DNA of 64,000 nucleotides from Halarcobacter sp. (GTDB lineage Bacteria > Campylobacterota > Campylobacteria > Campylobacterales > Arcobacteraceae): the NCBI GenBank assembly GCA_048571215.1, contig CP182352.1, forward strand, positions 1,696,001 to 1,760,000. The letters are read 5' to 3'. Shown piece after piece: positions 3,001 to 26,861 of the stretch. The position numbers are program-made. The number at the start of each line of letters is the position of its first letter. The first letter of the stretch is position 1.

Positions 3001-6000
3001 TCCTATCCTTGGAACTCTATGTGATAGTATTGTCGTTATTATCTGCCCTATTTGTCTACTTTATTAAACTGTATTTCTAAGTTTGAAGCTTGAGTAAAAC
3101 CAAATGTAAGAGGATAAGCTTGATTTTTATCATTGATATAAAAAAGTGCTGGAAAACCTCTTACTTGTAATTGATAAGTGATATTTAAATGCTCTTGAAA
3201 TTTTTTTTCAGTCTCGTAAGAATTAAATACTTTCAAAAACTCTACTTCATCTAATCCAATTGAAATAGCACACTCAACTAAAGTTTCTTTCAAAGAAGGA
3301 TTCTTCGCTTTTTTGTAATAAGCTGATTGAATAGCCTTTGCCATTTCATATGAGCTTTTATCTTTTAAAGTTTGGGCTGAAATTACAGCACGACAAGCAG
3401 GATATGTTGAACGATAAGGAGTATTTAATTTCCAATATTCATGATTAAAAGTTACTTGTGTCTTTTTTTCTATTTCTACCCAATAAGAAGATATACTCTT
3501 TTTCATATCCTCACTCATTGGCTCATAAGTATCAGGAGCTAAACCACCCATTATATAATCAACATCAAGGGAAGGATGTTTTTGTAAAAAATCTTCTAAC
3601 TCTGGTTGAAAAGCATAACACCAAGCACACATTGGATCCATAATATATAATAATTTCATCATATCCTCATTTTATATACTAATTTTAGTAATTGTAACCA
3701 CTTTATTCTTATCTTTTGTTATCCTTATCACCTACCCTATTTTTAAGCCCTATTTTGTATTTACTTCCTAAAAGCAAATAGATCTAAGCTTTTTTTCCTT
3801 TATACTTGTTCTATTGCACCTTGCACTTGCTTTTCATCTTGTTTTTCTTATCCAAAAGAATAAGAAAAGATAAAAACTTATAAGATTATAAAAATTTGCA
3901 TATGTTTCATGATTATATTACATCTAAGATTTTTTCAAGAAAATAGTGTAAGAAAGCTAAAATAACTAATATTAACAGCATAGAAATTCCACGTTTTAGG
4001 AACATATACTTGGATGAGTTACATTTTTTTTTCAGATAAAAGAGATCAAAAAGTATAAATAGTATAGCTAAAATGGCTCCTATTATACCTCCCACAAAAA
4101 ACACTCCAAAAAAATGCATTTTAGAATAAACAAAAGACAAGATACTTGTTTCTTCAGGCGTTGGACCTGCGATCAAGTATGAAAGCAAATACATATAGCC
4201 AATACCTAGAATCAAGGCAATGACTGTCCAAAGAGCATACTCCAAAATGAGTTTTCCCATTTTATTTGATTGAACAACATTTTTTTCATTCATTTTCATT
4301 GGGTATTCCTTTCATTTTAAACTCATTTGCAAACAAATCATAGATAATATGCATTTTGTGATTATTAAAGCTATGCGTAAACTTTTTGTCAAATTGTGGA
4401 TGTGGTCCATCAAAAAGAAAAAACAAAACTGACTTTGCTTCTTTAAACTCCAAGGTATTGATTAGATTATATCGTTGTTTTTTCTTGATATACTTTATAG
4501 ATTTATCTTGAAAATAATTGACAGCATCAGCTTGCCATTTGCCATTTTTTGCAATATTAATGAGTTTTTTTTCATAGTTCTTATACTTTTCATTTGAAAT
4601 CAACTCAAAAAAATAAGCAATATATGCATTACTTTCGTTGTAGAGTTTACTGGGGGAATCGCTGTACTCATTCCATCCAAAATAACTTATAAATTCTTGA
4701 AAACTATCAGGAAAGAGATTTAAAAAAAGTACCTCATTTTTTGTGGAGAACGCCAGCTTTATTTGAGATATGGAAATACTGTTATCTAGCGGTTCTTCAA
4801 CATCAGAAATTGTATCATTGTTATTGAACTTGCGATTGGGTTTATTAATCAAATTTCCCTCATTGAAGAAACTAAACTTTCCACATTTCAAAGTAACATT
4901 GGCTTTACAGTTAGAATAATTAAATTCTGCCAACTTATACTTACTATACATACCTAATTCTTCAGTGACCAAGCCACCTAGATCTTCTTCATTTTCTAAA
5001 AAATATGCTGTACCTTCATCTTGAAAAACACTAAAAGGAAAAGCCTTATAGTACTTATAAAATAAAATCGAATCTTCTTTTTGATAAGCTAGTTTCTTGC
5101 CTGTTGAAAACCCTTTCTTCATGTGTTCTGTTACTTTTTTCCTAATTGCTTGATGAAGAATACTCTGATCTTTTTCAGGATACTTTATTAAATAAAGGTT
5201 AGGATAGACCTCTGATTGTATAAACATCATATTCTTAAAAAAGAAGTGGTTAATAATCTGTACAACAATACCAATAACAAGCAAAGCCAAAGCCACACGT
5301 GACCTTACTTTATTTTGTAAAATCCACTTTATTAATCTAATAGCAAAAAATAGTAAGCCAATACTCAATAGTAGAAAAAATATGATGAGGATTATTTCCA
5401 TGAAGTTATATCCTTAGGGCACAGCAATCAATAAGCTAATACCACTTAGTCAAATACTTAATACGAGCATTTGTCATTTCAATTTCGCACTCAAGTCTGG
5501 CTTCATTGCGTTGCATACCTCCACTTTGAAGTACATAAAATGCATCACAATTTTTTTTCTTGAATTCAAGCCAGCTACGTTGACTAATAATCAAGCTTTG
5601 TTTCAATTCATTAGCATCAACTAAAGCTGCATCGGGTAGTTCTCCCGTGTTTATGCTACTCATAATAGCTTTATAAACACGATTCAATTCAGCATCAGAT
5701 GACTCTAGTTCAAGCTGTAGCTCACATAAAGAAGCAGGCAAACCACAACGCTCATCAATATCTTGTGCAAACAATTGGAAAGTCGTACAATAAAAAAATA
5801 GAACCATGAACCTAATCATTTAACTTTCCTTTTCTTAAAATATATAGTATTTGAGTTGAAAAACAAGGAGATATTTTTACTTAGTTCTTCAAAAGGTTTA
5901 ATTAAATTACTTTACAAGATAAAAGCTTAATAAATGCATTATTACCTTATTTTTCTTTCCAAGGTCTTATTACACGATTTTATTTGATTTTTAATCTACA

Positions 6001-24000: not shown

Positions 24001-26861
24001 ATTCCAGAGAAGTAACTCCAGCAATATAGCGAACATCCCAAGACGGCTGAATTGATAGCCCCTGCATCTGACTACTAATCCAAGAGGGAAGCCATTCTAC
24101 GGTTGCTACATGAACAATGAAACTAGTTGCAGAGGCAACTACAGCAACGATAAAAATAAGAAAAAATTTCATAACTCTCCTTGCGTGCTAACTATTTATT
24201 AGTACTATATTATATATAAATAATATATAAATTCACCTAATAGCACTACATTTTTTATGATAAGATACTAAATTGCTATAAAGCCCTTAAATAAGCTATT
24301 TTTAGTATTATTTAAATAATATATTACAATATGTAATATTTTATAAACCTAAATTGTATATTTGATATAATTTTTAATGTTAGACTATTAACGTATATCC
24401 GTAATAGCTTATCAAAATGTTATGCTATTGATTAAAAATCGTAATAGTTTAACAAAATGCTAAATATATCAGGAGTAAAAAATGGATAAGAAACTACTAG
24501 ATATTATGAGTGATAAATTCTAAATATTCACTTTTTTATTGAAAAAAGTAAAACAAAAAGCAACCCGCGGGTTTCGAAGGCAGAAGCTCCCCTCGCTTAT
24601 TATTTATTGTTTCTGTTTTGTAAAACTCACATAAAAATATGCTCCTAGCATATTTGTTCTGTTCAAACAGTTACAAAACTTTTCCGAAACAATAAATAAG
24701 CACTCAGCTTCTCAAATGCGGGAAGGTGGGAAACTGACCTTTGCATTTTTTAGTACCATTTTATTTTAGTGGGTGTGATACTCAACAATTATTATAAAAG
24801 TGGAGACTCATTCTTTATAGTTTATTTTTTTATAATAACCTGCATTCCTCAAATCATTTATTCTAAATATTAGTACATAATATAAAGATGGCATTACTGA
24901 TACTATATAAACTGCAAAAATTAAAAATAGATAAAAATTTGAGCTATTTATTAAAGTTCTATAAGTATTTATTAAATAAAAGAGAGGATAAATACTAATT
25001 AAACTATAAATAAGATATATAATAAAACCTAAAAAAGTAACAAAATTTTTTTTAAATTTTTTTATTTTTATTAAAAAGTATACATATATTTTAGATATTA
25101 TTAAAAGTAAAACACTTGATATAATTATAAATATAATTAACTCTAATATATTCTCTATCATTTTTCACCTTTGCATGGACAATAATATCAAAAATAATTA
25201 TATTAATAAATAAAGTGATGTTATAAATATTAGATTTTAATTTTAATCAAGGCGAAGTGAAAATTTTAAGAGGAGCGTACATGCAAGTACATGAGTATTA
25301 AATTTTTTACTTCCAACAACGCGTCTGGTTGCTTTTTGCCTTACTTTTTAGAACATGTAATCCTGCTTGCAGGCAAAAAAGTGAGAAAACGGAAAGCCTC
25401 GCTCTACAAGACAACTGCATACAGTTAATACTATTATCAAAATATTTGAGTATAAATAAACTTTTGAAGTACGTCTTAACTCTTCTCGACTTTTTTTATG
25501 AAAAAAAAGTAGCAAAAAATCACCCGCGGAGTTTTGGAGGTGAAACTACCCTCGCTTATTATTTATTGTTTCTGTTTTGTAAAACTCACATAAAAATATG
25601 CTCCCAGCATATTTGTTCTGTTCAAACAGTTACAAAACTTCTCCAAAACAATAAATAAACACTCGGCTTCTCAAATGCGGGAAGGTGGGATTATGACCTT
25701 TGCATTTTTTTATACCATTTTATTTTAATTGGTATAATACTCAACAATTATTATAAAAGTGGAGATTCATCCTCTAGGGTATTATTTTAATATTTATAAA
25801 TATATTTAGGTAAAAAAATGAAAATCAAATAATTAAGTATAAAAAGTATACATGCAGGCAACATTGAAATAATAAAAAAAAGCCCACTAAAACAGCCACT
25901 TCCACAAGTGTTTCCTTCATACCAAAGATATAATGCACCTAAGGTGGGGAGAATAGATAAAATAAATAAAAATTTTCCAAAAAATAAATATTTATTTTTC
26001 TTTTTTAAAATATTATATATTTTATAAGAAGGTATTAGTGGTATTAAATGTGCTAATACCAATACAAAAGTAAAAAAAAACATAAACTCGGATTTAATTA
26101 TAAATAAAAAAGGAAAACTCAATAATATTGCAATTAAAAAATAGTATAAAACGAATTTATAATTAATTTTTTCTTTCTTAATACTAATATAATTATTCAC
26201 TTTATATATTTTATTATCTAAAATTAATGTTTTTTCAGTTAATAAAATATAATCATTAATTGTATCATAATAAAAACTTTCATCATTTTCTACGATAAAG
26301 ACAATTTTATTATATAAATTAGTTTCATCAACAGCTAAATATGGGTAGTTTTTCTTAATCTCATCTTCAACTGATAATGGACTTTTTTTATTATTTAATA
26401 ATATAAGTTTTATTGTATCTCTTAAATTCATAGTATTCTTTTTTAAAAATCATAAAAAAGATTATAATATATATGCTCTAAAATATTATTGAATTGTAAA
26501 AAACATCATCCATTTTTACTTTAAAATTGAGATTATAATGCCACTAAAAATTAAGACAAGAATTTTAAAAGATTAATCTCAAAAATAATTAAAGTTAATT
26601 TATGAATTTCCATTTTCATACCTTTTTAATTTAAATTAGTAAATTATAATTAAAATATTTATAATAAAAAATATATATTACAATATGCAATAAAAAGTGA
26701 TGTTAGAAATTTTAAGTTTAGTTAATTAAATAATATAGAAAGCTTTAGAATTTAAAGAGGCAAGGCAGGCAAGTTTTTAGAGGCAGGAGCTTACAAGTAG
26801 TAAGTGACTGTCTCTAAAAATGAAGCTGAACGAAGCATATTTAAAAAGCTAAAGCTTTCTA

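Follow-up and report, generated by a model that had tools for sequence, protein, structure and literature searches.

Integrons are usually described as one integrase, one attI site, and an array whose expression is confined to the first cassettes. Where no intI lies nearby, cassette arrays are called CALINs or SALINs; an IntI is often encoded elsewhere in the same genome, intI loss is among the origins listed, and exchange with complete integrons has been proposed (Cury et al. 2016, PMC4889954; Loot et al., bioRxiv 10.1101/2022.09.11.507474). In these accounts, attC is all that defines a CALIN, CALINs are described as cassette donors, and most integrons were not searched for attI (PMC4889954; bioRxiv 10.1101/2022.09.11.507474). 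Integrase-less arrays were read there as relics or donors, their origin being an open question (Cury et al. 2016, PMC4889954). A 2023 report comes close, with an attI-headed array lacking an integrase in a genome that has one integrase; the case it describes is a single extra prophage site of the same attI type (PMC9892861). Xanthomonas CALINs occupy a few recurrent loci, one next to secF, and are said to be mobilizable in trans; the preprint's account of them has one ancestral platform at ilvD and reports no attI at the CALINs (bioRxiv 10.1101/2025.06.18.660453). In class 1 integrons, Delta-attI cassettes and attI × attI recombination give more than one attI-derived site per array (PMC12901181), which is relevant to tandem stacks like the one examined here.

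We analyzed a 64-kb stretch of the chromosome of a marine Halarcobacter (the window; positions count along it unless prefixed C1, which marks chromosome coordinates). Satellite arrays in this genome have one or more attC sites and no intI nearby. They differ from described CALINs in that they keep a Pint-attI segment and appear to behave as acceptors, 19 times in one chromosome. In contrast to the prophage case, the sites are many, chromosomal, of several lineages, and family-wide, and in contrast to the short attI remnants described inside mobile class 1 integrons, they are whole Pint-attI platforms at separate loci. The satellites are thus attI-bearing CALINs, a variant of known integrase-less arrays.

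Satellite Pint-attI platforms

The resident integron lies at C1:895-899 kb, about 800 kb from the window, with attI divergent from intI and attC cassettes behind attI. Its intI (C1:895239-896201) is the single full-length copy on the chromosome, as the initial annotation had stated; it scored 398.5 bits against TIGR02249 (cut-off, 265), and tblastn found no second IntI-like gene in the genome. The product is an IntI-family tyrosine recombinase with its catalytic motifs present. It also carries six private changes at otherwise invariant columns, the second highest count of 15.

Searching the whole genome with an iterated profile, we found 20 Pint-attI modules at E<1e-5; one belongs to the resident integron, which leaves 19 without intI, where the initial annotation had counted at least ten. 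The same profile run on the reversed genome gave no match better than E 2.3. Ahead of each attI site lie about 300 nt derived from an integron, and at all 19 satellites the intI beside attI is reduced to a 13-codon stub or to nothing. The satellite attI is homologous to that of the intact integron, with a G/TTRRRY crossover (the slash marks the exchange point). GTT is retained in 17 of the 19; the two degenerate copies, which have lost GTT but still have TATAAT, open into fixed genes. The TATAAT hexamer lies within attI at 19/19 platforms, so a candidate Pc would travel with the platform. Conservation stops at the crossover. Across 17 of the 19 platforms (two were omitted for want of a gap-free alignment), mean pairwise identity was 0.81 over the 27 nt before G/TT and 0.96 at GTT, then fell to 0.48 at +4 to +7 and 0.34 at +8 to +34.

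We called attC sites with custom patterns and not with IntegronFinder's covariance model; a structural attC scanner overlooked known sites, among them those in the resident integron, and gave way to a heptamer test. The attI heptamer was identical to the R'' of the first cassette's attC at 14 of 19 platforms (null mean, 1.3; maximum, 7 in 2,000 draws), and the exact match failed at the other five. At R-free sites in other genomes, the heptamer matched R'' at 46/77 against a null of 5.0. At the level of sequence, this match is shown to be the footprint of integrase-type insertion, by which attC × attI recombination would have placed the first cassettes.

The initial annotation had treated the platforms as copies of the resident integron, a view that did not hold. 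At least five integron lineages contributed to them: C1:1803472 and 1940122 alone cluster with the resident platform, and the remaining satellites belong to at least four others. One lineage has 16 members in six genomes, none with intI; its tree is poorly resolved, and the sample of intI-bearing platforms numbered just 13. A strict attI pattern matched 55 of 121 genomes, 40 of them at two or more sites, with one match for the reversed-pattern control; on these matches, the integrase-less platform pattern is family-wide in Arcobacteraceae. In one relative, G121, attI matches number 17 when one mismatch is allowed, and a single intact intI is present. Among the 15 single-contig genomes with at least two attI matches, our query found no intact intI in nine.

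The tandem stack in the window

Four of the 19 platforms lie in the window, with the crossover G at 15229, 18430, 21232, and 24192, all on the minus strand, as are the features below unless noted. Ahead of the stack is the core gene guaB (IMP dehydrogenase; PF00478; 26859..28304), a recurrent integron locus in the family that stands upstream of 13/99 sites in other genomes. It is followed by a 214-aa accessory gene (25787..26431), at which neither attI nor attC was found and where G122 has a different gene; by an X-type R repeat with a T motif at its 5' end and an S spacer but without a platform behind it (25417..25786); and by a 117-aa accessory gene of no family, between two R copies (24808..25161). 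A further X-type R (24524..24796; promoter-like pair at 24785-24758) heads platform 4 (24192..24481; G/TTAGCA), and an intI stub of 13 codons plus stop (24482..24523, plus strand) is fused to the R tail. The first cassette (23689..24191) comprises a 157-aa membrane protein (23699-24172) and an attC (23689-23744) whose R'' matches the attI heptamer at 6/7 positions. The next cassette encodes a 226-aa SAM methyltransferase (23002..23695); its attC is cut off here, and a T motif, a separate REP-like repeat, stands in its place (22937..22977). Beyond it, an intI stub on the plus strand accompanies a deleted R and a T on the minus strand (21887..22152), with attI absent.

Platform 3 (21232..21466; G/TTAAGT) is of another lineage, closest to a platform of G099, and has its own X-type R head (21509..21821) and intI stub (21467..21508, plus strand). 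Behind its attI is a 570-aa metallophosphoesterase lipoprotein gene (19496..21208; PF00149), where our custom patterns found no attC. Platform 2 (18430..18737; G/TTATAT) is headed by a T, an X-type R, and an S spacer (18706..19068). It is chimeric, its 5' end deriving from the R-S head and the rest being near the intact integron of G105. Its array has two full attC sites and one cut one, against a single attC elsewhere. The first cassette (16875..18429) encodes a defense-like TIR and Mrr-like nuclease protein (17013-18410) with an attC (16875-17009) whose R'' is an exact match; the second (16404..16880), an unknown protein ending at 16477 with an attC at 16404-16470; and the third (15895..16409), a glyoxalase/VOC protein (15941-16381) whose attC is interrupted by the next T-R unit, which leaves the first arm (15895-15922).

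That unit, a T with an X-type R (15561..15892), heads platform 1 (15229..15518; G/TTAGAC), again with an intI stub of 13 codons plus stop (15519..15560, plus strand). Platforms 1 and 4 are 97.6% identical and share one junction but have different cassettes. Behind platform 1 are a cassette (12073..15228) with a 991-aa ELWxxDGT-repeat lipoprotein (12232-15207) and an attC (12073-12206) with an exact R'' match, then a cassette for a membrane protein of about 95 aa whose attC is reduced to R'' (11775..12079) and which has related copies in the C1:1940122 array. Next come an X-type R interrupted by an IS110 element (9040..10632; transposase at 9108-10091), a Y-type R (8697..8927, plus strand), an intI stub of 8 codons that runs into the middle of a deleted R, with no attI core found behind it (8555..8690, mixed strands), and a 150-aa gene with a degenerate attC-like site behind it at 7806-7936 (7806..8384). 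Contigs from three short-read runs matched the unique parts of 7500-27000 with zero differences and crossed three attI-gene junctions; these runs are from one study, possibly from the source sample, and are therefore not independent. Joints in these contigs that traced to repeats and to other strains were set aside.

The initial annotation had attC sites behind every platform, which does not hold throughout, since none was found at 21232. It also had six intI stubs running into the R 3' hairpin as parts of attI platforms. Five of the six reach the R 3' tail, the exception being the stub at 8555, while the stub at 21887 has no attI, and two further junctions occur at C1:967220 and 1807258.

The R repeat

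R units are about 230 to 290 nt long, with paired internal hairpins, and form inverted X/Y pairs in intergenic space. The genome holds 55 near-full copies and 63 in total, in 32 arrays, many more than the 16 copies first annotated, and 16 of the 32 arrays touch a platform. R was said to head every platform. It does so directly at 16/19 and through an IS110-split R at one more, in the stated orientation (26/26 adjoining copies point into attI); C1:1940122, which is cassette-matched, and the degenerate C1:899723 have no R.

The R fold is conserved and strand-specific, with compensatory change in 29 of 62 pairs (0/500 shuffles as high). Such a fold does not separate RNA from single-stranded DNA. 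A promoter-like pair occurs in 37/55 X-type leaders against a shuffled mean of 7, the copies being related to each other. A generic promoter scan of 24150-24850 gave 5 sites with 4.8 expected and so lends no support by itself; no terminator-like site was found in that interval. Scored as a possible decayed intI start, the S spacer gave 27.4, compared with 25.3 when shuffled, and 8/30 were above the 95th percentile. Rfam returned no gathering hit, the best match at a relaxed threshold (E 0.4) lying outside R. As far as its sequence tells, R is an unclassified structured repeat.

Outside this genome, R and attI come apart. R was absent within 560 nt at 77/87 integrase-less sites in other Arcobacteraceae. 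Genomes of another genus hold R and attI sites unlinked. R without attI is seen in another genus (G003); one genome has at least 13 R copies with neither attI nor intI found. Because most sites elsewhere lack R and R occurs without attI, R in front of the Halarcobacter sites is, on these distributions, an older, independent element and not a required part. No R turned up in 144 Campylobacterota genomes from outside the family, screened with the Y model under strict filters, and a profile found none at the six non-Arcobacter matches of a 19-nt pattern.

Two described systems resemble R. IMUs and the NFM2 MITE are structured noncoding repeats of 300 to 400 bp fused to an integron with a truncated intI; as described, they are two identical flanking copies with terminal inverted repeats and target duplication (PMC3184786). 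R instead has paired internal hairpins, does not occur as two identical flanking repeats, and is one-sided at several loci, being only upstream of the platform at carA and at the ABC-permease locus across three genomes. Like REP/REPIN and TIR repeats with their RAYT/TIRYT transposases, R consists of inverted hairpin pairs behind stop codons, in many copies, and is an IS110 target (PMC3733652; PMC3116915). Inverted hairpin pairs in intergenic space were found here, whereas a Y1 transposase flanked by R, looked for in this genome, was not, and the unit length also sets R apart (PMC3733652). The genome's one Y1 transposase (PF01797) was considered as a mobilizer of R and rejected, as it is flanked by other repeats. 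By eye, no protein was recurrently linked to R at 23 loci of other genomes and 12 of G003, with no family-library scan of those neighbors. An attC-like nature of R was also rejected, its GTT and AAC standing by eye in opposite order.

One integrase and many probable docking sites

First cassettes differ between close relatives at platforms that are orthologous and lack an integrase. At the ABC-permease locus, the G121 platform has its best match in the platform of the present genome (G000) at the same locus (96.2%), with a different cassette. At carA, the platforms of G000, G121, and G122 are 94-95% identical with three different heptamers, each with its own R''. The cassette at the R-free C1:1940122 differs as well, while C1:963110 has the same cassette in G121. 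The SAM methyltransferase cassette starts at the same G/TTAGAGG behind three different attC sites, at two G000 satellites (23002..23695 and C1:1806323) and, in G121, within the intact integron. Different first cassettes at orthologous platforms, together with one cassette at three sites with identical borders, make capture in trans likely. Genes still seem to be exchanged at these sites, so a single enzyme probably works at many of them. Among 108 first-cassette proteins, no pair was similar at E<1e-5, and several look defense related (TIR-nuclease, Mrr, HNH, kinase, and SIR2-like).

We consider it probable that the genome holds a distributed integron, with one IntI, 19 satellite platforms loaded in trans, and R as a fused head that is not needed. 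Each satellite is a Pint-attI segment that retains its attI site and promoter hexamer and has lost intI. Cassettes would be loaded and replaced in trans by an integrase, either the resident one or one that arrives transiently through gene transfer. R belongs to an older family of paired long hairpins marking gene-acquisition hotspots behind core genes, and in Halarcobacter and a few relatives it became fused to the intI start or the Pint start. This fused head probably grafts incoming integrons, its short homology always leaving the intI body behind, and platforms would move between R arrays through it; spread by recombination through R, an alternative already raised in the initial annotation, fits best. 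Grafting is supported by a single R-stub junction that recurs on four platform lineages and by the chimeric platform 2. R may add read-through transcription, but R itself is not needed. We counted against this reading the private changes in the resident IntI, the 9 of 15 genomes without an intact intI, the 5 of 19 failed heptamer matches, and the unchanged cassette at C1:963110.

The platforms are themselves mobile and recombine: at the hyd locus, the G121 platform has its closest counterpart at a different G000 locus. A new cassette could therefore arrive with its platform from an intI-bearing donor, which argues against loading in trans. The satellites might instead be snapshots of decapitated integrons, taken up whole with their first cassette and kept only as promoters after loading had ended. 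The several intI-bearing source lineages, chimeric platforms, and exchange between loci would suit such an origin, as would the decay of intI at guaA, guaB, and purH in many relatives, the two degenerate copies that keep TATAAT but not GTT, and the nine complete genomes with platforms in which intact intI was not found. We nevertheless regard it as rather unlikely, because GTT, needless for a promoter, is retained in 17/19, cassettes changed at orthologous platforms, the 16-member lineage has no intI member, and one cassette has changed satellites with its borders exact.

We find it improbable that R serves as a functional component of some new element, either an RNA or promoter replacing intI and Pc, as first annotated, or a hairpin that mobilizes the platform with another enzyme. 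Its presence at 17 platforms, shared orientation, compensatory pairs, and promoter-like leaders speak for a role, as does an R-S-platform unit that G121 carries where G000 is empty. Yet one or two ancestral fusions could give the shared orientation, half of the R arrays have no platform, and R is one-sided at several loci, with no linked enzyme found; its absence from most sites elsewhere and the TATAAT within every attI also count against it. As for chance AT-rich matches, assembly error, or cassettes at secondary attG sites, the GC content of 28.5%, the custom attC patterns, and the failed structural scan gave reason for caution. The reversed controls, the heptamer test, the integron-derived sequence ahead of the sites, the agreeing short-read contigs, and recurrence of the layout in independent assemblies largely refute these explanations, and we judge them very improbable.

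Arcobacteraceae include food- and water-borne species. A wider version is possible but more doubtful: a family network with one integrase and many expressed first positions on trans-loaded platforms of several lineages, the Halarcobacter R being a portable head that would capture integrons, strip intI, spread platforms, and supply a promoter. R deserves its own study. With the attI sequences and the enzyme in hand, a clean test is possible. If many attI sites are live, attC-based surveys would undercount acceptor sites in Arcobacteraceae. Loading in trans would give a cell many first positions, each beside a promoter, instead of one. Many live attI sites per enzyme would thus be another integron design, with many first-position cassettes at a low integrase load.

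Integrase-less attI platforms in the genome

The genome is a single contig (C1) of 3.61 Mb with 28.5% GC, and its sole full-length integron integrase (C1:895239-896201) lies behind guaA and passes TIGR02249. Using a Pint-attI profile at E<1e-5, we detected 20 modules, namely, that of this resident integron and 19 satellites without intI, while the best hit in the reversed genome reached only E 2.3. TATAAT was found ~20 nt upstream of the crossover (G|TT) in all 20 modules, and GTT was retained in 17 of the 19 satellites. Identity between satellites (17 of 19 used) fell from 0.81 upstream of the crossover to 0.34 downstream. 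As a test for integrase-type insertion, we examined whether the attI heptamer is reverse-complementary to the R'' box that ends the first cassette. This held for 14 of 19 satellites, one of them with an altered G (null mean 1.3, maximum 7 in 2000 draws); the failures were C1:899723 and window 21232, both without attC, and three near matches. Integrase-less attI platforms with cassettes, as proposed in the initial annotation, are supported.

In the window (C1:1696001-1760000), four platforms are stacked behind guaB (window 26859-28304), with attI at 15229, 18430, 21232, and 24192 and with four complete and two cut attC sites. Unique parts showed no differences from short-read contigs of three runs, which belong to one study and may be from the source sample. 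A different palindromic element lies between core gene and platforms (window 26760-26840), as it does in four stretches of other genomes at guaB, purH, or guaA (L022, L025, L027, and L032). A palindrome ~150 nt 5' of the crossover (window 24340-24360 and equivalents), possibly a regulator site, is retained in roughly half the platforms, among them that of the resident integron.

Several features of the arrays were noted elsewhere on C1. The resident integron holds an ORF-less cassette of ~185 nt with a long attC twice, in first position (C1:896493-896680) and at about 898380-898570. The platforms at C1:899723 and about C1:904735, the latter shared with G121 and with G122-type sites (the two genomes are introduced below), are degenerate; they have lost GTT, retain TATAAT, and lead into genes without attC. 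By sequence, these look like platforms retained as promoters. The first cassette of the platform at C1:966922 (C1:965450-966892) encodes a 480-amino-acid protein with a predicted beta-lactamase-family (serine hydrolase) domain. Several arrays are followed downstream by a repeated noncoding segment of 220-330 nt (C1:900486-900780, 632137-632431, 960102-960387, 1471402-1471743, 1937352-1937617, and 2825866-2826200), which is probably the terminus of a decayed IS.

Distribution and ancestry of the platforms

A strict attI pattern had matches in 55 of the 121 Arcobacteraceae genomes, and 40 of these had at least two matching sites, compared to one hit for the backwards control. Among the 15 single-contig genomes with at least two matches, one IntI query found one intact IntI in six and none in nine. 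One draft genome without pattern matches had two full-length distant homologues. Among named records that also contain R, the hairpin repeat upstream of most platforms, the closest are a Halarcobacter (G121) with the same layout (17 attI matches when one mismatch was allowed, plus one intact intI) and an Arcobacter metagenome-assembled genome (G122) with five attI matches and a frameshifted intI. We retrieved 100 stretches, drawn from 48 of the 54 further genomes with pattern matches; the sites left out were mostly at contig edges. Removing 11 of 130 candidate sites that had no profile support left 119, including 20 from the present genome, and 76 of these passed the heptamer test (null 7.4). 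The intI class of this survey (n = 13) counts one frameshifted gene. Outside the present genome, 77 of the 87 sites without full-length intI had no R within 560 nt, and 46 of these 77 passed the heptamer test; nine of the ten R-linked sites were within this genus, the other being in G097. We therefore regard integrase-less platforms as a family trait and the link to R as mostly a feature of this genus. At 37 of 99 sites guaA, guaB, or purH lay upstream, often with R absent and intI either shortened to 27-71 codons or carrying an internal deletion. Five genomes (G017, G037, G070, G082, and G098) contain R, but it adjoins no attI site sampled from them. In G003, R occurs in at least 13 copies at some of the same hotspots (secF-leuS and rplT), and the searches found neither attI nor intI in this genome.

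The satellites had been taken for copies of the resident integron, and for most of them this does not hold. A tree of 75 platforms placed only C1:1803472 and 1940122 with the resident integron; others clustered with integrons of G048 and G105 (intact) or G092 (decayed), or in a clade with no intI in any member. The R label changed 12 times on this tree, at least 11 changes being forced by supported branches. A clade of 12 integrase-less, R-free platforms from nine genomes of several genera (L085, L093, L097, L099, L111, L113, L123, L130, and others) has a conserved upstream segment of ~150 nt in most members; a serine resolvase gene adjoins one, and several lie directly behind an attC. This clade is possibly a transposon- or plasmid-borne platform.

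The R repeat and platform spread

Rather than a 16-copy gene, R is a repeat family comprising the related subtypes X and Y; its near-full copies number 55 and are spread over 32 arrays, of which 16 adjoin a platform. Each unit is a ~170-nt rod tipped by an apical hairpin, with a second hairpin, short and A/T-rich, on the 3' side, and Rfam gave no match. Compensatory changes occurred at 29 of 62 pairs in Y, with 98% of cells paired (0 of 500 shuffles and no slid structure came close, though the relatedness of copies inflates this), and at 10 of 37 pairs in X. The fold on the R strand had the lower energy for all 41 Y copies and for 44 of the 55 X copies. The strand-specific fold and its compensatory changes show R to be a single-stranded structure, either of RNA or of DNA. 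Of the 55 X leaders, 37 carry a promoter-like pair (shuffled mean 7, maximum 14), which makes transcription plausible; the single R copy scanned had no terminator-like site. Arrays begin behind core-gene stop codons and border strain-variable genes, also where attI is absent. R acts like a REPIN- or MITE-type repeat, yet the membership tests run for these were negative.

At secF-leuS (C1:2520161-2523375; L153, L154, and L184), the accessory gene that R borders differs among all four genomes compared, with no attI at the locus, and R arrays may mark a separate gene exchange system of their own. All seven full IS110 copies (window 9040-10632; C1:1467773, 2521627, 2826742, 384508, 425848, and 970555) lie inside R, four identical copies at one X position and three copies at one Y position; by eye, their noncoding leaders contain words similar to the target flanks, as expected of bridge RNA. 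The T motif, a REP-like repeat in its own right (window 15852-15892, 19028-19068, 22937-22977, and 25746-25786; C1:548517, 809296, 2554854, and 3396730), also occurs alone and near the Y1 transposase at C1:2560378 and cuts attC at two places in the window. Beside this transposase (C1:2554259-2559400) is an array of what we take to be short toxin-tip-like and immunity-like gene pairs parted by short repeats.

All 26 R copies adjoining a platform point into it, in agreement with the proposal that R points through attI into the cassettes. Of the six intI stubs said to run into R, five join its tail; the stub at window 8555 joins mid-R without an attI core, and that at window 21887 has no attI. 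The same R-stub junction, located after about codon 12, is found on four platform lineages and again in G056, G097, and G099. Window platform 2 is a chimera whose first 90 nt resemble the head formed by R and its spacer (S) and whose other 235 nt resemble the intact integron of G105. At one locus, empty in the present genome, G121 and G122 have a common R-S head and different attI types. These observations fit recombination in a shared segment, and we propose that incoming integron DNA would recombine in a short segment shared with a resident R head, leaving intI behind (grafting). This group is presumably naturally competent. IntI itself is unlikely to have moved the platforms, as E. coli assays showed no recombination of attI into the genome (10.1101/2022.09.11.507474). 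R is likely an aid to platform spread in this genus and not the defining part of the system.

Probable loading of the satellites in trans

We consider it fairly probable, at about two in three, that the satellites are loaded in trans. Counting for this, no two first-cassette proteins were alike at E<1e-5 among the 108 of 119 sites with such an ORF. Cassettes also differ between platforms at the same locus: at the ABC-permease locus, the best match of the G121 platform is the same-locus platform of the present genome (96.2%) with a different cassette; at carA in three genomes, platforms 94-95% identical carry three different cassettes, each with a matching R''; and the cassette differs between genomes at the R-free locus C1:1940122 as well. 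Platforms 1 and 4 of the window share 97.6% identity yet hold different cassettes; one platform lineage, whose 16 members are spread over six genomes, has no intI in any; and a methyltransferase cassette begins at the same base in three places (the window, C1:1806323, and G121's intact integron), each time behind a different attC. Against loading in trans, platforms also move whole: the closest match to G121's hyd platform is C1:957002 (in a poorly resolved clade). The cassette of C1:963110 is unchanged in G121, and the cassette that comes first at guaB in G122 is similar to that of G097 (outside the 108). Also counting against loading in trans, the resident IntI has six private changes at invariant columns, compared to zero to eight in 14 other IntI.

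Capture of cassettes from transformed DNA has been shown in Vibrio (PMC12614218). In the related literature (PMC4889954, 10.1101/2025.06.18.660453, 10.1101/2022.09.11.507474, PMC3184786, PMC3733652, PMC9892861, and PMC12901181), the nearest precedent is a Shewanella prophage, which carries one integron together with a single CALIN headed by attI (PMC9892861). We found no paper on multicopy attI platforms in Arcobacteraceae or on R in a search that covered subscription journals thinly, and supplementary tables may list such genomes as CALIN-rich. Taken together, attI-bearing satellites of mixed ancestry are a real, family-wide integron variant, probably loaded in trans, with the 19 satellites of this genome at an extreme and R as an interesting unclassified repeat.
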